The notes beneath the pieces were generated by a model. The model was not told the DNA's origin and searched no databases. It worked only from the letters and a program-made list of their open reading frames with translations. This document shows positions 12,192 through 48,547 of a stretch of 51,705 bases of DNA, piece after piece (position 1 is the first letter of the stretch; each line of letters opens with the position of its first letter). Source of the DNA: an uncultured Gammaproteobacteria bacterium (GTDB taxonomy: Bacteria > Patescibacteriota > Patescibacteriia > UBA1558 > GWA2-36-10); assembly GCA_964638415.1 (NCBI GenBank), contig CAZWYP010000001.1, positions 1 through 51,705 of the forward strand, read 5' to 3'. The position numbers were made by a program, and so were the translations under genes.

Positions 12192-12195
12192 AATA

Positions 12196-12225
12196 AAAAA
12201 CCGTCTATAGCAAAGGGCGGTTTTT
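12196..12225 (+). terminator. Intrinsic terminator
   Basis: AAAAAACCGTC-loop-GGGCGGTTTTTT; a similar hairpin lies near 18037-18067. Confidence 0.7.
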
Positions 12226-12279
12226 TGTTTTGACTTTTACCTTAATTTAAGCTAAATTTAGTGTATTAAATGCAAATAA

Positions 12280-18014: not shown

Positions 18015-18083
18015 TTTCAACGGAAGTCTCTTATACAAAAAACCGTCCTGTTCCCAGGGCGGTTTTTCCTTTTTACTAAACTT

Positions 18084-19355: not shown

Positions 19356-20027
19356 ATGATAACTAAAAGTATAAAACAAAAAGCAATAGAATACAGAAAA
19401 CAGGGGTATTCGTATAATTTAATCTCTCAAAAGCTAGATATAGCTAAAAGCACTCTAAGCCATTGGTTAAGAGAAATTCCTTTTAATCCTAACCGAGAAG
19501 TGATAGAGCGAGTACGAGATGCTAGATTAAAATCAGCTAAATTTAAAAATGGACAGCGGTTAGATAATATAATCGCTATGAGGCTGGAAGCTATAAAAGA
19601 GCTGGGCAATATCACTAAAAGAGATCTATGGATGATGGGTATTGGACTATACTTAGGCGAAGGTTCTAAAGCATATGAATATATTAGAATCGCTAATTCT
19701 GATCCTCAGGTTATCAAAATATCTATGAAGTGGTTCAGAGAAATTTGCGGTTTAAAAAATAATAATTTCAGATTAAACCTTCATTTATATCCCGATTCTA
19801 ACATTAAAAAATCTATAAATTACTGGTCGCTCATAACAGGGCTTAGTAAAAATCAATTTGGTAAAATACAAATAGATCGAAGAATTAATAAATCAAAAAA
19901 TAAGAAAAAATTATTACCTAATGGAACGCTCCATATAATAGTAAAAAGTAATGGTAATAAAAAATTGGGGGTAAGCCTTCATAGAAAAATAATGGGCTGG
20001 ATAGAGGCCGTGGAGAATAAAATATAA
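19356..20027 (+). CDS. HTH plus LAGLIDADG-like (homing-endonuclease/WhiA-like) protein
   Basis: N-terminal HTH (GYSYNLISQKLDIAKSTLSHWL); LAGLIDADG-like helix MGIGLYLGEGSK followed by IANSDP; Lys/Ile-rich. Confidence 0.7.
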   Translation: MITKSIKQKAIEYRKQGYSYNLISQKLDIAKSTLSHWLREIPFNPNREVIERVRDARLKSAKFKNGQRLDNIIAMRLEAIKELGNITKRDLWMMGIGLYLGEGSKAYEYIRIANSDPQVIKISMKWFREICGLKNNNFRLNLHLYPDSNIKKSINYWSLITGLSKNQFGKIQIDRRINKSKNKKKLLPNGTLHIIVKSNGNKKLGVSLHRKIMGWIEAVENKI

Positions 20028-20119: not shown

Positions 20120-20144
20120 AACAACCCTAAAGGTTGTTTTTTTG
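20120..20144. repeat. 25-bp terminator hairpin, direct repeat copy 1
   Basis: AACAACCCTAAAGGTTGTTTTTTTG, identical to 22280-22304. Confidence 0.9.
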
Positions 20145-20981
20145 CTTTAAAATTTGTCGAGAGGGATATGAATAATTTAACTGTTCGCTATTACTTAATA
20201 AATATAAATAATCAATTAGTTTTTCATCGCTAACTAGGTCTGATGTTTCTAATAAAATAGATACTGCTTTATTTCTTATTGCACCAGAGGGTAATAATAA
20301 CAACCTATCTTTAATTAAATCATAAATCTTTTTTTTCTGCTTAGCCTTTAATTTTGAAACTATTGGTATTAGCTGTCTTAAAATTATATTAATTTCTTCT
20401 TCTGTCTTGGAATCTAACTTATTGATAAATATACTGATCAACTCATCATCTTTTTCAATCCACTGACTGGCTGTTATCAGATCATAATGATATTTACTCT
20501 TTATTATCTTTTGAAAGTCTTGGTAATTATCTTTTAAGATTTTATTAATTTCTTTTTCTAATTTATACAAAATCTTATCATTAGAATAAATAATGCCGTT
20601 GTTCCTGGTACCGGATAATTTTCCTTGGCCGGAATTATAAATAAAATCCAACCTAGCTTGGTGCTGACTAAGTAAATTTTTTATCTTTGCCAAAAATCCT
20701 TGAGACACCTCCTCTTTATGCTGATCTTTAATAAAATAATTATCTGCCGACAATTCACAGCTTATAACCGTCATCTCTAAATCCGGATAAAGTGGGTTCA
20801 TAATAGATACCACTTTATAATCATTATATACAAATTTTTTCAATTCTTTTTCTATCTCTAATAGTTCCTCATAATCATAATCCTTGCCAATGAGCTGGTT
20901 AAACGTATTAATGTTAACTTGCTGCGGGTAATTTATACCATCATGAAGCCAAAATTCAATCTGTTTTAATTTATATTTCAT
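20127..20981 (-). CDS. Hypothetical protein, 284 aa, helical C-terminus
   Basis: Long AT-rich ORF; its stop codon lies inside the terminator repeat. Confidence 0.7.
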   Translation of the reverse strand: MKYKLKQIEFWLHDGINYPQQVNINTFNQLIGKDYDYEELLEIEKELKKFVYNDYKVVSIMNPLYPDLEMTVISCELSADNYFIKDQHKEEVSQGFLAKIKNLLSQHQARLDFIYNSGQGKLSGTRNNGIIYSNDKILYKLEKEINKILKDNYQDFQKIIKSKYHYDLITASQWIEKDDELISIFINKLDSKTEEEINIILRQLIPIVSKLKAKQKKKIYDLIKDRLLLLPSGAIRNKAVSILLETSDLVSDEKLIDYLYLLSNSEQLNYSYPSRQILKQKNNL

Positions 20982-21083: not shown

Positions 21084-22055
21084 GTGGCTATTCTAGTGCT
21101 AACAAATAAATGGGATCCTCACTCGGACTCAGTGATTGAACAAATAGAGCACCTGGGCGCTGAGGTGGTTAGAATTAACACTGAAGACATTGGGCAAAAT
21201 AAACTCTCATGGCAGCTAGCTGTTGATGTTCCGCTTATTACAACGCCGGAAAACAGAGTGGTCTCTACCAATAATATCCGTGTTGTATACTTGCGTCGAA
21301 CACCAAAAGTTGCAGTTGCCAACCTTGATTCTAAATACGAGAAGTTTGTCCAATATGAATTTTCGGTTTTTACCGAATCACTGGAGACAACTTTACCCGA
21401 TGTAACTTGGTTTGATCATCCAATCCACAGAAGTTATGCAGACAATAAAATACGACAATTAACCAAAGCTAAGCAGGTTAATCTTGTTGTTCCACCAACA
21501 TTGGTGACAAATGATTTCGAGCAAATCAAAAAATTTATCTCGCTTGGCAAGGTCGTTTACAAAACCTTGTATGCTCCTGTGATTGATTACGGCCAGCAAG
21601 GCACATCTGTTGTCCACACCACACTACTTGATCCCAAACGGTTGATGGAATACGGAGAATTGATTAGCTCCTGTCCGGGAATTTTTCAGTCTTTTGTTGA
21701 AAAAGCTTATGATCTGAGAATTCATTTCATCAACGGGCACATAATACCAATTAAAATTGATTCTCAAAAATTTGAAGAGTCGATAATTGATTGGCGGAAG
21801 GCGAATTTCAGAAAACTGAACTATGAGATTGTGGAAATTCCACAGGATATTAAGACGAAAATCTCAATCTTCATGCAAGAATTGAATTTGCGGCTCGGAA
21901 TATTTGACTTCGCTGTAACAGCAAATGGAGAATATGTTTTTCTGGAGCTAAATCCTGATGGAAATTGGCTATGGATAGATTCGTTTATCAACTACCAAAT
22001 CAGTCAAAAAATTGCTGAACAGCTCGTCTCCTCACATGAGAGAGAAAGGAGGTGA
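21084..22055 (+). CDS. MvdC/MvdD-type ATP-grasp peptide maturase (graspetide synthetase)
   Basis: GTG start after an AAGGAG SD; DNKIRQL..A, PPTLVTND, VVYKTL, IFQSFVEKAYDLRI, DWRK, FLELNPDGNWLW motifs. Confidence 0.9.
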   Translation: MAILVLTNKWDPHSDSVIEQIEHLGAEVVRINTEDIGQNKLSWQLAVDVPLITTPENRVVSTNNIRVVYLRRTPKVAVANLDSKYEKFVQYEFSVFTESLETTLPDVTWFDHPIHRSYADNKIRQLTKAKQVNLVVPPTLVTNDFEQIKKFISLGKVVYKTLYAPVIDYGQQGTSVVHTTLLDPKRLMEYGELISSCPGIFQSFVEKAYDLRIHFINGHIIPIKIDSQKFEESIIDWRKANFRKLNYEIVEIPQDIKTKISIFMQELNLRLGIFDFAVTANGEYVFLELNPDGNWLWIDSFINYQISQKIAEQLVSSHERERR

Positions 22056-22060
22056 TGATA

Positions 22061-22228
22061 ATGATTCTGGAAGTCAAACCACTTGCTTCTTTGTTTGCCA
22101 GTGATCCCAGGCCGCTAATGGATAATTCTCAGGAATATAATCCTGATATCCAAAGGGATCCTGGGTGGCAACAAAGAGCAAACGGTACCGATACTTATAG
22201 GGGTGACACGGAAGATCACGACAAGTAA
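22061..22228 (+). CDS. Putative graspetide precursor peptide, 55 aa (not in the ORF track)
   Basis: MILEVKPLASLFASDPRPLMDNSQEYNPDIQRDPGWQQRANGTDTYRGDTEDHDK; AAGGAGGTG SD overlaps the maturase stop; followed by a terminator. Confidence 0.8.
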   Translation: MILEVKPLASLFASDPRPLMDNSQEYNPDIQRDPGWQQRANGTDTYRGDTEDHDK

Positions 22229-22238
22229 GTAATCGGCC

Positions 22239-22272
22239 TAGGTCCTCAACTAATACGTTGGGGACCTATTTT
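22239..22272 (+). terminator. Terminator of the ATP-grasp/precursor operon
   Basis: TAGGTCCTCAAC-loop-GTTGGGGACCTA-TTTT. Confidence 0.75.
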
Positions 22273-22279
22273 ATTATTT

Positions 22280-22304
22280 AACAACCCTAAAGGTTGTTTT
22301 TTTG
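22280..22304. repeat. 25-bp terminator hairpin, direct repeat copy 2
   Basis: Identical to 20120-20144. Its TTGTTT lies 17 nt before TATAAT (22317-22322), upstream of tRNA-Gly(CCC). Confidence 0.9.
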
Positions 22305-22334
22305 TTATTAGCGCTCTATAATGCCTACTATTAG

Positions 22335-24086: not shown

Positions 24087-25572
<1,486 letters not shown>

Positions 25573-38942: not shown

Positions 38943-39386
38943 TCAATTTTCGTCTTTAACTCTAATATTAATATCTTTCTTTTTAGCCTTTGGTAAGATA
39001 ACAGTTAAAATGCCGTTGCGAATGGTAGCATCTACTTTATCTGCTTGCACGTCTACCGGTAAAATTATTGACCGGCTGAAAGAGCCCCAGTAGCATTCCT
39101 GGTAAAAATAGTCTTCTTCGGCAATACTATCATCGCGATACCGCTTACCGCGAATAGTCACCATGTCATTCTCAATGGACACATCAATATCTTCTGGCTC
39201 CACTCCGGCAATGGTAGACTTAATGATAATACTGTCCTCATCCTGAAAAACATCTACTGACAATTGACCTTCTTCCTCAATATCCTCTTCCGACCAACTT
39301 CCGTCTTCTTCCAAATCATTGTCCTCACTACTAGTTTCAATCACATCGGTTTCTTTTTTTACTTTTTTGTTTTTCTTTGACAACAT
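38943..39386 (-). CDS. Hsp20/alpha-crystallin small heat-shock protein
   Basis: VDVFQD...AGVEPEDIDV...ECYWGSFSRSIILP...NGILTVILPK. Confidence 0.93.
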   Translation of the reverse strand: MLSKKNKKVKKETDVIETSSEDNDLEEDGSWSEEDIEEEGQLSVDVFQDEDSIIIKSTIAGVEPEDIDVSIENDMVTIRGKRYRDDSIAEEDYFYQECYWGSFSRSIILPVDVQADKVDATIRNGILTVILPKAKKKDINIRVKDEN

Positions 39387-39506: not shown

Positions 39507-39974
39507 TCACGCAGAAGCTGTCGGTAGTTCAAATTCTTTAGCTAGATCGCCACCAATCTTCCTGATGGCTGTCATGATGTGCCTAGCTTGTTGCGGGTAA
39601 TTTTCCATGAGTTGCCAGAGGGCAGTAATCAGCTTTTGATCTGAATCTTTGGGAGTCAGTCGACCAATGATCTTGTCCGCTATCTGAATTACTTTTTCTC
39701 TCCTTTCCTTTTCTGCAAATTGGCTGACGATCTGCAAAACCAGATCGGGATTGTTGACAGCGACTTCTTCGACAATTTCCGGGTGTTTGGATACTATCTG
39801 CAGCGTACCCTCACTGCTGGCTATATCCGCCAAAGCAATAAAGTCCGTTATGCGGTCTTCACTCAAAACCATGGCTATTTCAACAGCTTGGAGGGGAAAC
39901 TGCCTGGCAAACTCAACCGCGCGGTCGGGATAAACTTGAGCCATCGCTACAACATTTTTTTTGGTCAGCTTCAT
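39507..39974 (-). CDS. Hypothetical all-helical protein
   Basis: AAGGAA SD before the ATG at 39974; own promoter and terminator. Confidence 0.65.
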   Translation of the reverse strand: MKLTKKNVVAMAQVYPDRAVEFARQFPLQAVEIAMVLSEDRITDFIALADIASSEGTLQIVSKHPEIVEEVAVNNPDLVLQIVSQFAEKERREKVIQIADKIIGRLTPKDSDQKLITALWQLMENYPQQARHIMTAIRKIGGDLAKEFELPTASA

Positions 39975-40109
39975 GATCAGATTCCTTGTTTGTGAAGAAC
40001 AATGTTTCAATTATTATTTAACCTATTATACCCTAGTGTTTTTGTCAAAAAATGCCACTTTATAATATTTGCTACTTCTGATAAAATTACCCTATTAATC
40101 TATTCATTA

Positions 40110-42953
40110 ATGTGGAAGAAACTATTAACAAATTTTAGATACCTGTTGTTGATAACTTTATTAGCAGTAGGGGGATCAAGCTTGGTTTTATTATTAGCCG
40201 AGGACAGTAATAGCAATACACCGGCTAACGGCTCTTTGATTAAAAGCGCCGATTCTCCCCATGTTTATTATGTGGGTGCTGACGGGCGCAAATACCCCTT
40301 TCCCAATGAAGCGACTTATTTCAGCTGGTACCATAATTTTGCCTTGGTGCAAAATGTTAGCCAAACGGTTATTGACAGCTTAACTACCGGCCCTAACTTA
40401 ACCATTCGGCCTGGTATCCGCTTTGTGAAATTTTCCGATTCCAGTCAAGTTTATGCCGTTGAGCCCGGCGGTGTTTTGCGCTGGATTCCCGACGAGCAAA
40501 TGTTTCATCGCTTAGGCTATAACTTTGATCACTTAATTGAATTGCCGCCAAGCTTAAGGGCAGATTATGTAATGGGGGAAACCTTAACCGGCCCTGCTAA
40601 TGGTAGCGTTATCCGCCAAGGACAGTTTGGTTCAATTTTCTTCGTAGAAGATGGTAAATTATTACCAACCACCTTGCGAGGCATGGAGGCTAACCGCTAT
40701 TTTCCTCATCATATTCGCATCACTGATTTTGAGCTAACCGCTAATCTTACCAGGGGTGATGTGGTTATTAGTTTTAATCCTTTTGTGTCTGGTCGCCCAG
40801 ACCAACGCTGGAATCCCATCTCCGCTGATGAAAGTCAACTTAATCCACAACAACCGGAAGAAGAGGAAGAAATTTTACCACCGGAAGAGGAGAGTAATAC
40901 CGACGTACCAGCGCCAAATAATTTTAGCGCCTCTGGGGGAGCGGTCTACGTTCAGGTTTATTGGCAAACAGTTGGTGGTCAGGACGTCACTGGTTACATG
41001 CTTTATCGATCAACCGCGCCAATTACCGATTTAAGTAATAGCAATGTTAGGCTCTTAGGAACTATTTCCCCTAGCATAAATTATTATTTGGACAGTGCCG
41101 GCGATTTAAATGAGCTAACAACTTATTACTACGCCATACGTTCAGTTACCAGTGATAATCGTTACAGCGCTTTAAGAACAGCTTCTGCTATGACCTTGGC
41201 TTCTAGTAACGGGGAAAATCAGCCAACAGCGCCAGAAGCGCCAACCAACTTTAATGCCGTTGGCGGTGAACAAAGAATAGATCTAAGCTGGAATCTATCT
41301 ATTAGCTCAGGAGTGACTAACTATCTATTATACAGAAGCTTATCACCCATCACTAATGTTTCCCACAATGGCGTAACTCAGTTGGCATCTTTAGATCCTG
41401 ATGATATTTCTTATACTGATAACAGTGTTTCTGTAGGCACAACTTATTACTATGCTTTACGTGTTTTGGCTAATAATTTATACAGCAGCATAGTAACAGC
41501 CTCTGCCACACCTTCAACCGCAGTGGCCCAGTTAGACAGAATCTTGCACTTGCCAGAACCACCGGACAATTATGTAAACCCGGATGCATTAACCTGGTCA
41601 AAAAATGCCGCCACCATGGCAGCGGCTTTGGGTATAAACAAGCTAATGGTACCAACTCGCTATTATCAAGGAGTAAATGATTTGGACCCCAGTTACGGAT
41701 CACAAGCTTGTATTAATCATGTTGGTCGTTTCTGTGGAGATTATCATGAATTCTTAGACCATGTAGATGGCCTATCTACTCCCGATGGAAGACCTGTAGA
41801 AGTGATCCTGCTTTCTGCTAAAGTCACCAAAACACCAATGACTGGTGACCCACAATTAAAAGGAGCGATTAGGCTGCAACAAATGGGAGAACAGCCTTAT
41901 GATTTCTTTTCACGCTTATCTCAAACTAGCGGTACTTTGCCGCCTGGCGGACAAGGAGAAAATCGGGCTTTTATTTCTATTAATTTTTCTGCCCCCGAGG
42001 AAAGAGACAGATTATTACGTATGACTACAAATATTTCTGGAGACAGTGTTCGTATTCGTTGGTTTCCAACTGCTTGGGGCGACGCAAAATTTGTGGACAG
42101 CGGTGTTGGACAAGCGGGATTAGGTTTAAAAAATTGGGACCTGCCCAATCCCACCATTGGTGCTAACAACCAATATTTATTAATGATTCAAAATACTGGC
42201 ACCGGAACATTAACCTGGGAAATCACTGGCTTTACAGAAACCACGCCGGGCCCCTCAACAATTAGAAATCAGGATGCAAATTATTTTGAGTGGTTGGGTA
42301 ATTCTGTGGGTTTTACTACCTATGGATATAACCATCCTCGCTATGCTCTTAATGAAACTCGCACGCGCTTCATTAATACCATGGCCACCGTGTGGAATGA
42401 ATTCAGTAACCACCCTAGCTTAATTGGATTAATGGGCTATGGTGATGAGCCTCATGCCATGTTTTGGATGCCTGAAGATACTGCTAATTTCCAAAATGCT
42501 GGACATCAATTAGCAGAGTTTGAAAAAGCCGTAGCTAATGGACAGTATGCTTTTACCCAAAGTAATTTTTTACTCTTTGGCGATCCTCGCGATCCTACTC
42601 ATAATGGTATTAGCAGTGGCGTTTATGCTTCTAATATGGCTGGGGGTGGCTTTAGTAATATGGCTTCCTACTTTAACGGCTCTGAACCAATTGATTGGGT
42701 GCTCTGGGCAGGAGCTCACAGTACCAGTCAAATATCCGGATTTACCAGTCAGGGCTTTGGCGTGTATTTAATGCAGGCCTTATATGAGAGCAATTATGCT
42801 AGCGAATTCGGTCGGTGGGTCACCGCCGCCAATGGCTTATCTGCTTCTGAGAAAGAAAGAATTAAGGGTTGGTTCTACTATACTGAACAAAGATCATCAG
42901 TCACTCAAGAAATCCTGCAATCCGCGGTCAATGCTACGCCACCTCAATTATAA
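40110..42953 (+). CDS. Large exported modular protein: CPR-type surface repeats, 2x FN3, glycoside-hydrolase-like barrel with an Ig insert
   Basis: GSLIKS..SP.VYYV..DG.KY.FPN repeats; two AP.NF.A..G...W..Y..YRS modules; NTGTGTLTW; NHPSLIG...GDEP. Confidence 0.7.
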   Translation: MWKKLLTNFRYLLLITLLAVGGSSLVLLLAEDSNSNTPANGSLIKSADSPHVYYVGADGRKYPFPNEATYFSWYHNFALVQNVSQTVIDSLTTGPNLTIRPGIRFVKFSDSSQVYAVEPGGVLRWIPDEQMFHRLGYNFDHLIELPPSLRADYVMGETLTGPANGSVIRQGQFGSIFFVEDGKLLPTTLRGMEANRYFPHHIRITDFELTANLTRGDVVISFNPFVSGRPDQRWNPISADESQLNPQQPEEEEEILPPEEESNTDVPAPNNFSASGGAVYVQVYWQTVGGQDVTGYMLYRSTAPITDLSNSNVRLLGTISPSINYYLDSAGDLNELTTYYYAIRSVTSDNRYSALRTASAMTLASSNGENQPTAPEAPTNFNAVGGEQRIDLSWNLSISSGVTNYLLYRSLSPITNVSHNGVTQLASLDPDDISYTDNSVSVGTTYYYALRVLANNLYSSIVTASATPSTAVAQLDRILHLPEPPDNYVNPDALTWSKNAATMAAALGINKLMVPTRYYQGVNDLDPSYGSQACINHVGRFCGDYHEFLDHVDGLSTPDGRPVEVILLSAKVTKTPMTGDPQLKGAIRLQQMGEQPYDFFSRLSQTSGTLPPGGQGENRAFISINFSAPEERDRLLRMTTNISGDSVRIRWFPTAWGDAKFVDSGVGQAGLGLKNWDLPNPTIGANNQYLLMIQNTGTGTLTWEITGFTETTPGPSTIRNQDANYFEWLGNSVGFTTYGYNHPRYALNETRTRFINTMATVWNEFSNHPSLIGLMGYGDEPHAMFWMPEDTANFQNAGHQLAEFEKAVANGQYAFTQSNFLLFGDPRDPTHNGISSGVYASNMAGGGFSNMASYFNGSEPIDWVLWAGAHSTSQISGFTSQGFGVYLMQALYESNYASEFGRWVTAANGLSASEKERIKGWFYYTEQRSSVTQEILQSAVNATPPQL

Positions 42954-42959
42954 CTAACA

Positions 42960-42988
42960 AAAAAACAACCTTGCTAAAAGGTTGTTTT
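42960..42988. repeat. 29-bp terminator hairpin, direct repeat copy 1
   Basis: AAAAAACAACCTTGCTAAAAGGTTGTTTT, identical to 44337-44365. Confidence 0.9.
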
Positions 42989-43070
42989 TTGATGCTCATT
43001 GACAAGGTGCTAATATTTTATTATATTTAAAAATCTTTGTTCATTGTCAACAATAAAAAGGGAGATTAAG

Positions 43071-44327
43071 ATGTGGGATCCTTATGCGGAGTTTCAATCT
43101 ACAAAGCTGGATAATGGATTAACTATATTTTCAACGCAGTGGCCTAACAAGCCATGGCAGTATGTGGGTCTGTTAATTCACAGCGGCGCCTCTTCTGACC
43201 GTGAAGGGTTAGAAGGAACTGCGCATTTTGTTGAGCATCTAATTGCTTCAAATGGACCGTTGTCAGAAAATGAGATGCAATTATTTTTCGATGAATGCGG
43301 CGGGTATGTTAATTGGGGAAGGACTGGATATCCTTACACTCATTATTTATTTTGCGTTCCGGCAGACGAGGATTTACTGAATAAGGCTTTTGGCTTTTTT
43401 GGTAACATGCTCTTGGCCGCAAAACTAAGAAATGAAATTGAAAGCCAAAGGGAGATTATTATTCAAGAGTTTCGCCAAGACTACCCCGCTAACTTCAAAT
43501 ATGAGTTGGCTGTGCGGGAATACCAATCTATGTATCCCCAACATTGGCTATCTCGCTTCACCACGCCTTTGGGTAATTTGGACTCACTCGGGAAAATAAC
43601 CCCCAACGATCTGCAGACATATTATGACAAGCACTATGTGCCTGCTAATATTAGCGTGATTAGCGTTGGCGGTATGGCGCTAAAGGACTTAACGTCTTTG
43701 ATAGCAAAAAGCCCTTTGGCCGCAGATAAACCTGGCTTAAGAAATCCTCTGCCCGTACGCTTCACTGATGTTGCCAAACCAACTGAATCTCGCTATGTGT
43801 TTGATGCTTCAAAACACATAAAAGATCCAAATCTTGCGACATGCTCTTACTACACTGTTGCTAAAATTCCCGCCAGCATAAACGTGCGCGTTGTACGGCT
43901 TCTGCGCGATATGCTTAACGAGATTTTGTACAGAGAAGTCAGACAGAAAAGAAATTGGACATACAGCATAAGTTGCGACTATGGAGACTTGGGCAATTTT
44001 TATGTTTTTTCCATCAACTGCGGATTTTTGGATCTTGGTGCACTAAATGAAATAGACCAAGTTGTTGAAGCATGCCTAAGCTCTTTAACCAGTTCTCATG
44101 AGTTGTTCTACAAAATGAAAAAAGCCTGGTTAACTGGTAACCTGATGATTGATGTTTCTGGACAAGGCCTACTTAACGATGCTTTGGATGATCTAATTGG
44201 TTACCATCGCATTGTGTCAATATCTGAGGTCAATCGTGAAATTGAGAACGTCACAATGGATGATATTGTGGAAACTCTTTCGTGGTTAACCACTGAAAGA
44301 AGATGGACGCTGATCACTAAACCTTAA
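43071..44327 (+). CDS. M16 (insulinase-family) metallopeptidase
   Basis: LDNGL, GTAHFVEHL (HxxEH), downstream IIIQE. Confidence 0.88.
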   Translation: MWDPYAEFQSTKLDNGLTIFSTQWPNKPWQYVGLLIHSGASSDREGLEGTAHFVEHLIASNGPLSENEMQLFFDECGGYVNWGRTGYPYTHYLFCVPADEDLLNKAFGFFGNMLLAAKLRNEIESQREIIIQEFRQDYPANFKYELAVREYQSMYPQHWLSRFTTPLGNLDSLGKITPNDLQTYYDKHYVPANISVISVGGMALKDLTSLIAKSPLAADKPGLRNPLPVRFTDVAKPTESRYVFDASKHIKDPNLATCSYYTVAKIPASINVRVVRLLRDMLNEILYREVRQKRNWTYSISCDYGDLGNFYVFSINCGFLDLGALNEIDQVVEACLSSLTSSHELFYKMKKAWLTGNLMIDVSGQGLLNDALDDLIGYHRIVSISEVNREIENVTMDDIVETLSWLTTERRWTLITKP

Positions 44328-44336
44328 TCTAATAAC

Positions 44337-44365
44337 AAAAAACAACCTTGCTAAAAGGTTGTTTT
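44337..44365. repeat. 29-bp terminator hairpin, copy 2 (terminator of the tRNA-Leu/Val operon)
   Basis: Identical to 42960-42988; 10 nt past the tRNA-Val 3' end. Confidence 0.9.
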
Positions 44366-44375
44366 ATTTTATCTC

Positions 44376-44452
44376 TGGTGGGTCCGAGAGGAGTTGAACC
44401 TCTGACCTCCACAATGTCAATGTGGCGCTCTAACCAACTGAGCTACGAACCC
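44376..44452 (-). tRNA. tRNA-Val(GAC)
   Basis: Cloverleaf; anticodon loop TTGACAT; encoded CCA. Confidence 0.95.
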
Positions 44453-44461
44453 TTGTTTTTA

Positions 44462-44546
44462 TGGTGCCGGAGAAGGGACTTGAACCCCCACGCCTTGCGG
44501 CACATGGTCCTAAGCCATGCGTGTATACCAATTTCACCACTCCGGC
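44462..44546 (-). tRNA. tRNA-Leu(TAG)
   Basis: Class II cloverleaf; anticodon loop CTTAGGA; encoded CCA. Confidence 0.95.
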
Positions 44547-44647: not shown

Positions 44648-45769
44648 TCATCTCTTGGGGAAGAGAATTTTCACTGTGCCGTCAGGCTGCCGCTCAAGAC
44701 TGACTGGCATAACCGACTCATTGCCGGTAGCTGTAATCGTAAGCTTGGCCTGTTGCTCACCATCAGGATTAATGGTGACACTGACGGTCTTTGGCTCATC
44801 CTGAGAAGGTTGAGCTGGCACCGTCACAGGTTCCTGATGAATGGTCTCGATCTGGGAAGGTAAAGTCGCCGGCGTATCCGCTGCGACTTCAGTGTTCCAT
44901 GTCCAGCCTTGAGGCACGTTGAGAACTTCCGTGCCCATGTTGCCACAAGACATCACGAAATAACGAATTTCTCCGTCGGGCATAGTGCCACGATACAAAC
45001 GAGTACCACGGCGTTCACCGCGCTCGGCATAGATACGACCGGGGCGATTCATACCGTCACCGAAAGCCATGGAATGGAGTGCATACTCTGGTGAATTCGC
45101 AGCTCCGTTAAAGAAGCCACGATCCATGTGAGTGGGTCGCTGACCGTAGAAATGCTCCACTTGACCAGCAGCAGCCGTGGGATCATTCGACATCGGCGCC
45201 GGCATCACCGCTGCATAATTGGCTGGATCTTCTTCTCGTTCTCGCTGTTGCTCTTCAGCGCTTCCATCAGACTTCGTATAGTCTTTAGCGAGAAAGTATG
45301 CAACGAAAAAGATGGCAAGAATTCCTAGAAGAATTAACAGCGGCCAGCCAGACCAATCCGACCACGATTCGCGCAACTTCGTCGACACGACCTTGGTTTG
45401 GTCTGAGGTAACTGAATCGGACATTGACCACAGCGGATCCGACGGGACTGTCTGGGCTTTCATCTGACTGTTCTGAAGGTGCCTTTCAGCAATCCGCCAG
45501 AAACAATTGCGTCGACCATAAATGGTATCAGCCGAGGATACGGCGTAGACCAAGTAAACATCACACTCGATGCCAGGAGTGTCGGGATTGTCAGCCGGCA
45601 CTTTAACTAGATCACCCGGCATAACCAGGTCCGGGTTTGGATGCAAGTCACGGTTCAGTAGAACCATAGCATCCTTCAGCTGGTCTATCTCGTAGACCGT
45701 CGGCTGATACGCCCACGCTACCGTTGCGGTGACTAAAGCCACCATCATCAGGATAAAACCTCGTCTCAT
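44648..45769 (-). CDS. Exported/membrane protein with a LysM-like N-terminal module
   Basis: Signal peptide; VMPGDLVKVP and CFWRIAE resemble LysM; one TM; unknown cytoplasmic domain; GGAGG SD. Confidence 0.6.
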   Translation of the reverse strand: MRRGFILMMVALVTATVAWAYQPTVYEIDQLKDAMVLLNRDLHPNPDLVMPGDLVKVPADNPDTPGIECDVYLVYAVSSADTIYGRRNCFWRIAERHLQNSQMKAQTVPSDPLWSMSDSVTSDQTKVVSTKLRESWSDWSGWPLLILLGILAIFFVAYFLAKDYTKSDGSAEEQQREREEDPANYAAVMPAPMSNDPTAAAGQVEHFYGQRPTHMDRGFFNGAANSPEYALHSMAFGDGMNRPGRIYAERGERRGTRLYRGTMPDGEIRYFVMSCGNMGTEVLNVPQGWTWNTEVAADTPATLPSQIETIHQEPVTVPAQPSQDEPKTVSVTINPDGEQQAKLTITATGNESVMPVSLERQPDGTVKILFPKR

Positions 45770-45951: not shown

Positions 45952-48438
45952 TTAGCCTCTTTTCTGTTTAAAATAATATACTGTGGCTAAAATAAAAGTT
46001 AAAATTAGAATGGTCCATAGTATTTTCTTAACTGGCTTATTATTTAAAATACTATCATTGGTATTAATTTTAGTAGTGGAGTTCACAGATAAATCTTCTC
46101 CCTCCTCATTAACCATGGCTATGCCTAAGGTTTGTGGAACTAAAATATCCTTATCTGACAACGCCGTTAATTTAAATCCGGCATCAGTTTTAGCTAAAAT
46201 CCCACTAACTACAATTTCATCACCTTTTTTAATTTCCGGATTATTTAAGGTGAAACTGTTATAAACGCGAAGCTGTGAGTCGCTGTCTTTATCTTGAGCT
46301 AAATAAATATTCTTACCGGATTTTTTCACTACCGCACCTTTAACGGTTATAAAATCTCCCAACAAGTCCTCTGACAAATCCTCCACCACTAAGCTTTCCG
46401 GCTGTTCGAGGCTGTCTTGCGAATTTAAAACTAAAATATTTTCAGCAGTAGAAATTTTAATTCTAGGCAGATCACCGACACGGGAAATCTTGCCAAAAAC
46501 TTCCACTAAATCTCCTCTCTTAATAGTTGGCCATGATTTTTTACTAAAATATATTTCCAGAGTTTGAGAGAAATTCGCTTGCTGGTCAGAAAAATCTGCT
46601 AAGTACAAAACATTGCTATCTGTGCTGCTCTCTTGTAGAGAAATTCCCTGCACATAGACTTCAGAATTTTTTTCCTGTTCATAAATTTCATTAACATTCA
46701 TGGTGTTAATCTGACTTTCTACAAAGAAATCACTTCCTTGCGGCGTTGGATTAATATTAACAAACCATTCTTGATTCAAATTGTCCCAAGCATAGCTTTG
46801 GCCAGCCGGAATTTTATCATAAGCAATTTCCTGCCAAGCTTCTCCTAAAGGAGTTAACAACCTGACACTGTCACTATTATTATTTAAAGTTATTTTATTA
46901 TCCTTCCGGTCAATTATTTTATACTCTCCCGCAAGGATAATAAAATCTTCAGCAAAGGTATAAGGCTTACTGCCGCCTTCAATATCATCCAACTGCCAAC
47001 CCTTAAGATTAATTTCCTTTGAGGAGAAGTTAGCTAACTCTATCCATTCATTGTCATCAGAGCCAATGGGGTCAGGTATAAACTCTGTAATCATTAACTC
47101 GCTTAATTGCCAAGTAATCGGTTGGAGATCGGTTAAGCTTAAATTGACTTCTTTATCTATTACTTCAATAACAGCTGTTGTTTCCGCTGTTAAGCCCTCA
47201 TTATCCGTAACCATTAACTTAACTAAATAATTTCCTGGCGACTGGTAAACATGGTTTTCTTTGATTTCATCGCCATTAGTTTCATCACCAAAATCCCAAT
47301 GGTAGTTTAATTCTCCCTCTTCCGGATCAGTTGCCTCTGAACCAGACAATATCACTTGCTCCCCAGCCACTAGTTTTTCTGTTTCAATTTTAATGGCGGC
47401 CTGGGGCGGTAAATTGTCCAAAAACTGGTTGGCGTTACCTGGGGTAGGCAAGCCTGACCAAAGGAAATTATCTCCCTGGCGGGCAAAGCTTTTTCCCTCC
47501 GGCGCAGAACTGTTGTATTCAATTATCTCTATTAACTCCTCTGCTGAATTGTATAACTTAACCGCATCACCGCCGGTGTTATTCAAAGAAATACCGGTTA
47601 AACTTTTGGGTAGGGTTAAATAACTGCCGGCTGGAATCACTAAATTATTTTCTTCACTAATAGTAAAAATCCTGGCTGAATTATCTTGCAGTTTGTAGCC
47701 AGCTAACTCTATTGGTAGAAAATAGTTATTATAAATCTCAATCCACTCTTCTGTGTCAGAGCCAACAGGGTTGGGTAAAAATTCCGAGATCTGCAAATAT
47801 TGCCAAAGCGCTGGGATATTATTACCACCGCCTTCTATTGGTGGCTCTGGAGGTGTTTCTGTTTCTTCTTCCTCCTCTTCCCCTTCATTGTTATTTGGCA
47901 GACTATTTAACTGGCCTGGCGTCCCACCGCTAACAAAACTTTCCTGCCAATTAGTTTGCGTATCATCGCTGTTTAAAATGATCTTTTCCAAGCTGTTGCC
48001 AGTGCCAGCCGCGCCATAGTCTGCGCTATAATTAGTTTGCGCAAACTGCAGATCACCAAAGACCAGGGCTAGACTATCTTGCGAATTTGCTAAACTAAGG
48101 CTCGTATCAAATATGCTGCCGGTAAAGTTTGGGTAGTCCAGTAAAAATTGCTCGGCGTTGTCAGCGATGATAAAAAATTCATTAGCCGCAATAGTGGTAG
48201 TACCTTGTGCTAAATTTAAAATATGGTTACTACCATCAAAAAAACGCCAAGTGTCTCCGCTGCCGGTTAATACTGTTATTGGCTCATTGCCGGTATTATA
48301 CACTTCCACCCATTCATGGTTATCGTCCCCAGCCGGCCAGTCATACATCACCTCGGAAATAATTAAATCGCTTTCCGCTGCCTGACAACTTAAGGCTGTA
48401 ATAAAAAATAAACTAATAATAAAAATCGCTTTCTTCAT
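45952..48438 (-). CDS. Surface protein: 3x lamin-tail domain, PKD, OB folds, C-terminal TM anchor
   Basis: ISE(V/F)...EW(V/I)E repeats, LNNTGGDAVKL, YHWDFGD..HVY..PGNY.VKL.V.D. Confidence 0.85.
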   Translation of the reverse strand: MKKAIFIISLFFITALSCQAAESDLIISEVMYDWPAGDDNHEWVEVYNTGNEPITVLTGSGDTWRFFDGSNHILNLAQGTTTIAANEFFIIADNAEQFLLDYPNFTGSIFDTSLSLANSQDSLALVFGDLQFAQTNYSADYGAAGTGNSLEKIILNSDDTQTNWQESFVSGGTPGQLNSLPNNNEGEEEEEETETPPEPPIEGGGNNIPALWQYLQISEFLPNPVGSDTEEWIEIYNNYFLPIELAGYKLQDNSARIFTISEENNLVIPAGSYLTLPKSLTGISLNNTGGDAVKLYNSAEELIEIIEYNSSAPEGKSFARQGDNFLWSGLPTPGNANQFLDNLPPQAAIKIETEKLVAGEQVILSGSEATDPEEGELNYHWDFGDETNGDEIKENHVYQSPGNYLVKLMVTDNEGLTAETTAVIEVIDKEVNLSLTDLQPITWQLSELMITEFIPDPIGSDDNEWIELANFSSKEINLKGWQLDDIEGGSKPYTFAEDFIILAGEYKIIDRKDNKITLNNNSDSVRLLTPLGEAWQEIAYDKIPAGQSYAWDNLNQEWFVNINPTPQGSDFFVESQINTMNVNEIYEQEKNSEVYVQGISLQESSTDSNVLYLADFSDQQANFSQTLEIYFSKKSWPTIKRGDLVEVFGKISRVGDLPRIKISTAENILVLNSQDSLEQPESLVVEDLSEDLLGDFITVKGAVVKKSGKNIYLAQDKDSDSQLRVYNSFTLNNPEIKKGDEIVVSGILAKTDAGFKLTALSDKDILVPQTLGIAMVNEEGEDLSVNSTTKINTNDSILNNKPVKKILWTILILTFILATVYYFKQKRG

Positions 48439-48547
48439 AGTTTTTAGCTTAAGGAAAGCCTGGAGCAACAGGCCAACTCCAAACCTTCCTTAAGCTTTTG
48501 TCCCGCGCCAAATCTTCATGCCTAAAAATAAGGCGCGGGACAACTAG

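Follow-up and report, generated by a model that had tools for sequence, protein, structure and literature searches.

A duplicated terminator hairpin borders a lineage-specific M16 peptidase gene at a tRNA-linked hot spot in a Patescibacterium

Patescibacteria have tiny genomes with few recognisable mobile elements, so the ways in which they gain genes are poorly understood. Here we examine a 51,705-nucleotide stretch of a patescibacterial genome (contig CAZWYP010000001.1, positions 1 to 51,705; hereafter the window), in which a gene for an M16 peptidase lies between two copies of one terminator hairpin, immediately beside a tRNA-Val gene. Why does a terminator occur twice, letter for letter, around a single gene, and does the pair record how that gene arrived? 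The locus offers a clean and comparable case for this question: a conserved, tRNA-centred hot spot with differing cargo in 12 genomes, and one unit that has exact terminator copies as its borders.

A terminator module present twice around an M16 peptidase gene

The repeat is an exact 29-mer, AAAAAACAACCTTGCTAAAAGGTTGTTTT, found twice on the plus strand of the window, at 42960-42988 and 44337-44365. The expected number of matches was 0 in 100 shuffles, and a search of the window for a third copy with up to 3 mismatches found none. When one indel in the A-run is allowed, the repeat reads TAAC-A7/A6-CAACCTTGCTAAAAGGTTGTTTT (42955-42988 and 44333-44365; 33/34 bp), and in a strain from run X2 an additional A after position 44336 makes it an exact 34-bp repeat. 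Contigs from X2 end at both hairpin copies. The duplication is real and lies beyond chance. The first-pass annotation of this DNA, made from the sequence alone, had described an exact 29-bp duplication with only a promoter and an M16 gene between its copies and the second copy just past the tRNA-Val 3' end, and this observation proved correct in every detail.

Both copies have the anatomy of an intrinsic terminator: an A-tract, a stem of 11-13 pairs that includes three G-C pairs, a 5-nt loop and a T-tract. The upstream copy, T1 (42955-42990), consists of TAAC and one further A (seven in total) ahead of the 29-mer, and its T-run extends to 42990; it folds at -14.6 kcal/mol (z -5.2). The downstream copy, T2 (44333-44365), folds at -12.7 kcal/mol on the plus strand and -13.9 kcal/mol on the minus strand. 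By sequence definition, both are thus predicted to be bidirectional, Rho-independent terminators. Their positions are those of the 3' ends of transcription units. T1 begins 6 nt past the stop codon of an open reading frame (ORF) of 983 aa, and T2 begins 9 nt past the M16 stop codon and ends 10 nt from the 3' end of tRNA-Val(gac), which is encoded on the minus strand. We predict that T2 is a terminator shared by M16 on the plus strand and the convergent tRNA-Leu/tRNA-Val operon on the minus strand, and that T1 terminates the 983-aa gene and keeps read-through from reaching the M16 promoter. The limits of the repeat coincide with the terminator module, with nothing beyond it.

Between T1 and T2 lie only a promoter, a ribosome-binding site and the M16 gene. 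The promoter is sigma-70-like (TTGACA-17-TATATT, 42999-43027, plus strand, 11/12 matches) and is followed by a GGGAG ribosome-binding site. The M16 ORF (43071-44327, plus strand) encodes a pitrilysin-family peptidase of 418 aa, in which the M16 and M16_C domains both score above the Pfam cut-offs and the zinc motif HxxEH is kept, with H52, E55 and H56 invariant, as expected of an M16 metallopeptidase. The gene is transcribed, as an RNA contig from a sludge metatranscriptome spans 43410-43889. A PADLOC search of M16 and its neighbours gave no defence-system match. Strains from runs X2, X3 and X6 carry ten clustered substitutions at 44222-44318, within the last 100 nt of M16, while the remaining 1.15 kb is identical; this cluster fits a recombination tract that would end at the hairpin and the tRNA. 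Overall the X2 strain is a mosaic, with 0-6% divergence depending on the segment.

The stem of this hairpin is not confined to the M16 unit. AACAACC/GGTTGTT stems occur four times in the window (20120, 22280, 42964 and 44341; 0 expected), and the folding energies of all four lie between -12.7 and -14.6 kcal/mol, with U-tracts on both strands and T-runs of 4-7; the other good terminators of the window have unrelated stems. The copies at 20120 and 22280 form a second pair, an exact 25-mer with a loop that differs from that of T1 and T2. The left copy (20120-20144, loop CTAAA) lies 13 nt past tRNA-Gly(tcc). The right copy (22280-22304) closely follows a peptide gene's own stronger terminator, 30 nt upstream of tRNA-Gly(ccc), and so is redundant as a terminator; together the two bracket an accessory block adjoining tRNA-Gly. 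That the pairs share a stem and differ in their loops had also been noted at first pass, and the count agrees: four stem copies, two loop types. The stem 7-mer by itself is not over-represented in the window (15 observed, 13.4 expected).

The tRNA-Leu/tRNA-Val locus in sister genomes

To place the M16 unit in an evolutionary context, we collected sister loci through the single-stranded DNA-binding protein SSB (L058-L062) and through an alignment of the LTD/PKD surface protein (L063-L068, L071, L072, L085), which yielded 11 genomes. All have one backbone order, namely GDH, RNase HII, SSB, LTD/PKD, a variable region, HSP20, VanW, NusB-NUDIX and RNase III, which is the order of the window from 51.7 to 34.7 kb. 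The variable region is thus anchored on one side by the HSP20 gene (38943-39386, minus strand; 65-78% identity in the sisters) and on the other by the LTD/PKD gene (45952-48468, minus strand), which the sister loci keep. Within it, tRNA-Leu(tag) and tRNA-Val(gac) (44462-44546 and 44376-44452 in the window, both minus strand) form a conserved pair in 10 of the 11 sisters; L058 diverges after LTD/PKD.

Around this core, the contents differ from genome to genome. Among the sister cargo are DUF218, a Trp-repressor-like gene, a PALP enzyme and small ORFs. Four sisters have the tRNA pair in inverted orientation, and in five it is split by inserts of 0.5-1.35 kb. From tRNA-Val to HSP20 the distance is ~0.2-1.3 kb in the seven sisters with the tRNA orientation of the window, compared with ~5 kb in the window itself. 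Homologues of M16, of the 983-aa ORF that T1 ends (40002-42953, plus strand, function unassigned), of a 167-aa ORF (39507-40010, minus strand) and of a 373-aa ORF on the other side of the tRNA pair (44648-45769, minus strand) were found at this locus in none of the 11 sisters. The last has a GC content of 0.52 (window, 0.41) and no family match, and is probably foreign cargo. Conserved flanks with varying cargo, the mark of a tRNA-linked hot spot for horizontal gene transfer, were thus found over the 11 sister loci, and the tRNA-Leu/tRNA-Val site between LTD/PKD and HSP20 is, as judged from these loci, a hot spot of gene turnover. No mobile-element genes were found at the site, either among the window ORFs by Pfam or in the precomputed Pfam assignments of the three sister loci with gene calls.

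The M16 protein itself is without close relatives. Its best non-self matches have 50-51% identity and come from Giovannonibacteria, Moraniibacteria, Nealsonbacteria and similar lineages; a profile scan of genome contigs with the M16 alignment likewise gave a best match of 51%, in a search whose matches did not include the window's own genome. Backbone proteins of the window, on the other hand, have relatives at 65-84% identity overall: TrmD at 84%, 82% and 78% (labelled Komeilibacteria or Parcubacteria), and SSB at 81-66%. Together with the sister loci, these values indicate that the M16 unit was inserted directly 3' of tRNA-Val and is specific to this lineage. A vertical descent of M16, suggested by its wide distribution and native GC content, was considered and is overturned by the sister-locus comparison. 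The first-pass annotation had taken the peptidase to be a captured, lineage-variable gene, and had named its vertical, syntenic presence in relatives with both hairpins as what would speak against this; its absence from all 11 loci bears the first view out.

The sister loci contain other short repeats at the tRNA genes. Duplicated terminators were not found in the sister hot spots, only partial duplications of the tRNA-Leu 5' end (L062, 14183-14204/14290-14311; L066, 14036-14065/14162-14191). With a duplication of a tRNA-Cys 3' end in L023 (6323-6347/6405-6429), these are tRNA gene ends duplicated with their flanks beside hot spots, and they look like scars of earlier recombination at tRNA genes. 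In L063, L066, L068, L072 and L085, the first ~70 nt 3' of tRNA-Val contain a common stretch, TCGA[CT]TC, then a short inverted repeat around T[AT]CG[GC]CA. In run X13, a 431-nt contig has a tRNA-Val identical to that of the window (44375-44452) and differs from the first base past the 3' end; it comes from a relative, or from another organism with the same tRNA, that is without the hairpin.

How the second terminator copy may have arisen

We next consider where the hairpin came from. Among the fetched loci, the AACAACC...GGTTGTT hairpin was found only in the window and its identical Logan contig (L001); an exact search of Joint Genome Institute (JGI) metagenome contigs with the 23-nt hairpin core gave no match; and the sequence 3' of tRNA-Val in the sisters is unrelated to that of the window. 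The absence of the hairpin from other fetched loci and the unrelated sister sequences thus indicate that it is native to this species. A donor of M16, a protein at most 50% identical to any known sequence, is unlikely to have brought a matching hairpin, hence the second copy was made in place. In the whole metagenome assemblies X1 and X2, where the genome has a contig word depth of 8-13 and the screen detects matches of 25-29 nt, both loop variants are confined to their known sites; the identical loops at unpaired sites that the first-pass annotation had held out as counter-evidence were thus not seen there.

A comparison of two other M16 loci separates duplication of the hairpin from gain of the gene. 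L020 and L023 are ~92% nucleotide-identical sisters with the order tRNA-Cys, M16, downstream gene common to both. In L020, an exact 36-bp terminator, AACAAAAAACCGCCGGGGATACCGGTGGTTTTTTAT, lies on both sides of M16. The upstream copy stands ahead of the M16 promoter, 27 nt past tRNA-Cys; the downstream copy follows the terminator that M16 has of its own and serves the convergent gene downstream. L023 has a downstream hairpin orthologous to that of L020, with several differences, some of them compensatory. Its upstream position is taken by a different terminator, alongside the 25-nt duplication of the tRNA-Cys 3' end. As far as the comparison of the two loci can tell, a terminator module was here copied, or kept identical by conversion, around an M16 gene that was already in place. 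The duplication in L020 occurred without gene gain, and a hairpin pair is therefore not in itself a scar of insertion.

Across Patescibacteria, M16 genes show an association with tRNA genes and repeats. The family has hundreds of patescibacterial members of ~417 aa, with lengths of 415-420 aa in nearly all of the 120 relatives listed. M16 has a tRNA gene within 500 nt in 14 of 37 loci, compared with 50 of 393 other ORFs from the same loci (p = 2.6e-4), and the identity of the tRNA varies between lineages. In a uniform scan of 700-nt flanks, direct or inverted repeats bracket M16 in 4 of 34 loci (3/33 when the window is left out) and 3 of 541 other ORFs (p = 3e-4). Specifically, in a Giovannonibacteria clade M16 is flanked by inverted repeats of 148-153 nt with 99-100% identity (L003, 286-433/1995-2142; L052, 136-288/1848-2000; L008, 1-95/1657-1751); nucleotide similarity among these relatives stops at the repeats, and L002 and L003 carry the module in opposite orientations. 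The neighbouring genes vary even among relatives whose M16 genes are 85-95% identical. A same-stem pair with diverged loops also surrounds M16 in L006 (5844/7376), and other terminator pairs enclose genes that look accessory, namely MscS with DUF305, a TehB-like methyltransferase with tRNA-Lys, and a GT4 glycosyltransferase with DUF4012. In the three cases of exact duplicates (both pairs of the window, and L020), one of the two copies is found 10-27 nt beyond the 3' end of a tRNA.

Two further repeats near M16 were recorded. In L046, a 1.16-kb inverted repeat pair (11197-12357/15790-16950) starts exactly at the 3' end of a truncated M16 gene, matched only to residue 399, and may be an insertion-sequence-like element. 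In another Patescibacterium, a 104-nt direct repeat of 82% identity (L004, 4663-4766/7547-7650, equivalent to L014, 8663/11547) brackets the M16 region.

Given these observations, the explanation we favour, with a confidence that is about even, is that T1 and T2 are one native terminator present twice and bounding an inserted M16 unit, and that non-reciprocal copying of the module in place produced the second, at or soon after insertion. A self-contained unit of promoter, ribosome-binding site and M16 would have inserted just 3' of tRNA-Val in the hot spot, and the whole terminator module (A-tract, hairpin and T-tract) would have been copied non-reciprocally from one border of the unit to the other. 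Such copying could proceed by short-homology recombination or template switching, during insertion or soon after it, with the A- and T-tracts possibly serving as microhomologies and the tRNA genes as an anchor; a dedicated integrase would be unnecessary. The data show the duplication, the terminator anatomy of both copies, the lineage specificity of the gene, the hot spot and the confinement of each hairpin variant to its pair; the mechanism of copying, its timing and its direction we infer.

Several points weigh against this explanation. A sister with M16 and a single hairpin, which would represent the intermediate, was not found among the loci compared. Copying of modules of 25-36 bp over 1.4-2.2 kb, whether through template switching or short-patch recombination, is rare in the laboratory, and for terminators there is no demonstrated case. 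A recombinase could sit in the genome outside the 51.7-kb window. The L020/L023 comparison is without an outgroup, and loss of the upstream copy in L023 combined with a fast-evolving L023 hairpin would also account for it. Finally, the repeats that bound M16 elsewhere and the hairpin pairs around accessory genes would fit a process coupled to insertion equally well.

The strongest alternative is the one proposed at first pass, that the gene was captured as a cassette: a promoter-M16-terminator unit would have entered by recombination between an incoming terminator, on circular or competence DNA, and the terminator of tRNA-Val, or through a hairpin-specific recombinase encoded elsewhere. The unit is indeed lineage-specific and bounded exactly by the terminator, a second pair with a redundant right copy brackets an accessory block beside tRNA-Gly, one copy lies near a tRNA 3' end in every exact-duplicate case, and the M16 family is tRNA-adjacent, repeat-bounded and changeable in its neighbours among close relatives. 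Against this, a foreign donor would have been without a matching terminator, as the hairpin is missing from every other fetched locus and even the nearest M16 has only ~50% identity, so the first terminator-gene-terminator arrangement would still require a duplication in place; this consideration counts directly against short-homology integration of foreign DNA. The repeats span 25-34 bp, about the minimum for RecA-dependent recombination (~30 bp in E. coli, as cited in PMC2884548), and L020 and L023 provide a duplication without gene gain. Nor does any observation directly mark the hairpin as a site of recombination: among the contigs of the eight runs that contain the species, we found neither an allele without either cassette nor a joint between hairpins, and a search of X1-X8, X10 and X13 for cassette-free variants gave none, a weak negative given that assembled contigs drop rare variants. 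A Pfam search of the ~50 window ORFs, which include housekeeping and cell-surface genes typical of Patescibacteria, found no integrase, transposase or other recombinase, and an Rfam scan of the window returned rRNA and tRNA genes only. The proposal that capture was integrase-independent is thus in keeping with the window, but is more than can be claimed from 51.7 kb of a genome in which this contig by itself measures 228 kb. We consider capture possible but unlikely; the first-pass interpretation is partly supported, and the capture mechanism is unproven.

A broader version of this idea would treat terminator hairpins next to tRNA genes in Patescibacteria as recombination sites that shuffle single-gene promoter-gene-terminator modules, either without an integrase or with an unrecognised recombinase, and M16 as a recurrent passenger. 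Its varied tRNA neighbours, its lineage-specific repeat borders, its inversion between conspecific populations and its absence in the sisters of this organism are the traits that suggest such a role. We regard this as a speculative and unlikely proposal.

Tandem duplication of the promoter-M16-terminator unit, with later deletion of the first gene copy but not of its terminator, is attractive in being common, in needing no special enzyme and in yielding direct repeats. It would have to leave an exact terminator module, with no coding or promoter remnant, on at least three independent occasions (the two pairs of the window, and L020), and no trace of a second M16 copy is present here; we judge it improbable. 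Still less probable is a mobile mini-hairpin, of the kind of repetitive extragenic palindromes (REP) or miniature inverted-repeat transposable elements (MITE), copied in trans by a transposase encoded elsewhere and flanking M16 by chance or through a preference for nearby sites. Four same-stem copies in 51.7 kb, a repeated unit that is the hairpin alone, and the hairpin copy at a new site in L020 are what such an element would produce. However, in whole metagenome assemblies both loop variants number exactly two copies each, the stem 7-mer occurs at its background frequency, the flanks have no common target motif, the window has no gene of the RAYT or IS200 type, and its other terminators have unrelated stems. 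That nothing special has happened, with an old, vertically inherited M16 and terminators alike by selection or chance, is highly improbable and already contradicted: the family is widespread and of conserved length, and its GC content here (0.42, compared with 0.41 for the window) is unremarkable, but chance is not expected to yield an exact 29-mer together with its loop, the loop sequence is not fixed by selection for termination, M16 is missing from the syntenic site in every sister, and it has no close orthologue.

The duplicated terminator may have consequences beyond this locus. If the second copy arises as a side effect of insertion, such duplicates would allow recent gene gain in integrase-free genomes to be recognised cheaply from sequence; if terminators are copied onto terminators, transcription signals would themselves spread through local recombination. 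The pattern seen for M16, with adjacent tRNA genes, bounding repeats and changing neighbours, suggests that a housekeeping-looking gene may act as a roaming module.

Other terminator pairs and comparison with known systems

The window holds further features related to these pairs. A third terminator pair, 12195-12235 and 18037-18077, 5.8 kb apart, has a common stem (AAAAAACCGTC...GGCGGTTTTT) and different loops, and looks like an older duplication of the same kind; this pair and that of L006 would fit duplication followed by decay of the loop. For the 20120/22280 pair, comparison with a relative was not available, as synteny in the closest long sister contig (L143, TrmD 82%) is lost right after TrmD. 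An apparent deletion of 19.3-23.9 kb in X1 was an artefact, since a single 22,339-bp contig of X1 covers window positions 1776-24114 in colinear order.

Inside the 20120/22280 pair lies a cluster (21084-22228) of the graspetide type, a class of ribosomally synthesized and post-translationally modified peptides, here in a Patescibacterium. Its maturase is an ATP-grasp protein of the MvdC/MvdD family (NCBIfam TIGR04185, E 1e-61, under the equivalog cut-off) and is followed by a 55-aa ORF (22061-22228) with a strong terminator of its own at ~22239-22267. On the minus strand, an AT-rich 284-aa ORF (20127-20981; GC 0.28; no family match) has its last five codons and stop inside the 20120-20144 hairpin, which thus abuts or truncates the end of the gene. 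At the other end of the block, the right arm and T-run of the 22280 hairpin give TTGTTT, 17 nt upstream of a perfect TATAAT and before tRNA-Gly(ccc) (22294-22322), so that this hairpin may double as part of the tRNA-Gly(ccc) promoter. Between tRNA-Pro and tRNA-Gly, an AT-rich ORF of 223 aa (19356-20027) has weak helix-turn-helix matches only, to Pfam HTH_28 and to the NCBIfam family for the CRISPR-repeat-binding protein Cbp1 (E 2e-4, far under the cut-off). The 23S (1-2096) and 16S (24088-25572) rRNA genes are unlinked, both on the minus strand and 22 kb apart, with five tRNA genes and ~20 protein genes between them.

Compared with ordinary bidirectional intrinsic terminators, T1 and T2 have the same anatomy and the same positions, after stop codons and a tRNA 3' end and between convergent units. 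They differ in that ordinary neighbouring terminators are unrelated in sequence, whereas here there are two exact-duplicate pairs and one stem for all four copies. A literature search found no description of duplicated terminators as cassette borders, nor of palindromic repeat families in Patescibacteria.

The autonomous promoter-gene-terminator units that are inserted between the genes of phages, known as morons, offer a close parallel. Like a moron, M16 is a single gene with its own sigma-70-type promoter and terminator, placed between two transcription units; unlike one, it has no phage genes around it among the window ORFs searched by Pfam, its context looks chromosomal, and its upstream border carries a copy of its own terminator. 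The likeness to integrons lies in single-gene units separated by hairpin-forming sites. Integron attC sites, however, are longer (57-141 nt), imperfect and not pairwise identical, and integron cassettes are promoterless, stand in arrays and depend on IntI. We rejected an integron cassette here, as the hairpin is perfect and 25-29 nt long, the M16 unit has its own promoter and the window has no IntI.

Short extragenic palindromes that have a common stem and follow genes also recall REP/REPIN elements and MITEs. For hairpins with identical loops, a multi-copy element of this type was rejected, as X1 and X2 hold two copies per loop variant; the stem family as a whole has four members in the 51.7-kb window, among whose ORFs no RAYT or TnpA gene was found. 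DNA uptake sequences are a further case in which a short motif forms an inverted pair in terminator hairpins, and the host here may be naturally competent. In Neisseria and Pasteurellaceae, such sequences in terminator stems number ~1,000 or more per genome (PMC1852404), and the background frequency of the stem 7-mer led us to reject this assignment.

Two recombinase-free routes resemble the process proposed here. In short-patch double illegitimate recombination, microhomologies let ectopic single strands anneal at the replication fork, and a short patch is replaced (bioRxiv 10.1101/2023.11.22.568220); in homology-facilitated illegitimate recombination, foreign DNA enters beside a conserved anchor (reviewed in PMC2884548). 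Neither has a demonstrated case for terminator modules or in Patescibacteria, and we extend them to this locus by analogy.

The closest match is to tRNA-linked hot spots of horizontal gene transfer, with which the locus shares its conserved flanks and tRNA pair and a cargo that is different in every sister. An integrase-type tRNA island was rejected, as the repeats do not overlap the tRNA and the window contains no integrase. The M16 unit is bounded by a duplicated terminator, not by a duplicated tRNA 3' end (att). The locus is thus a tRNA-linked insertion hot spot of a known kind, and the duplicated terminator at the border of its cargo is its new feature.

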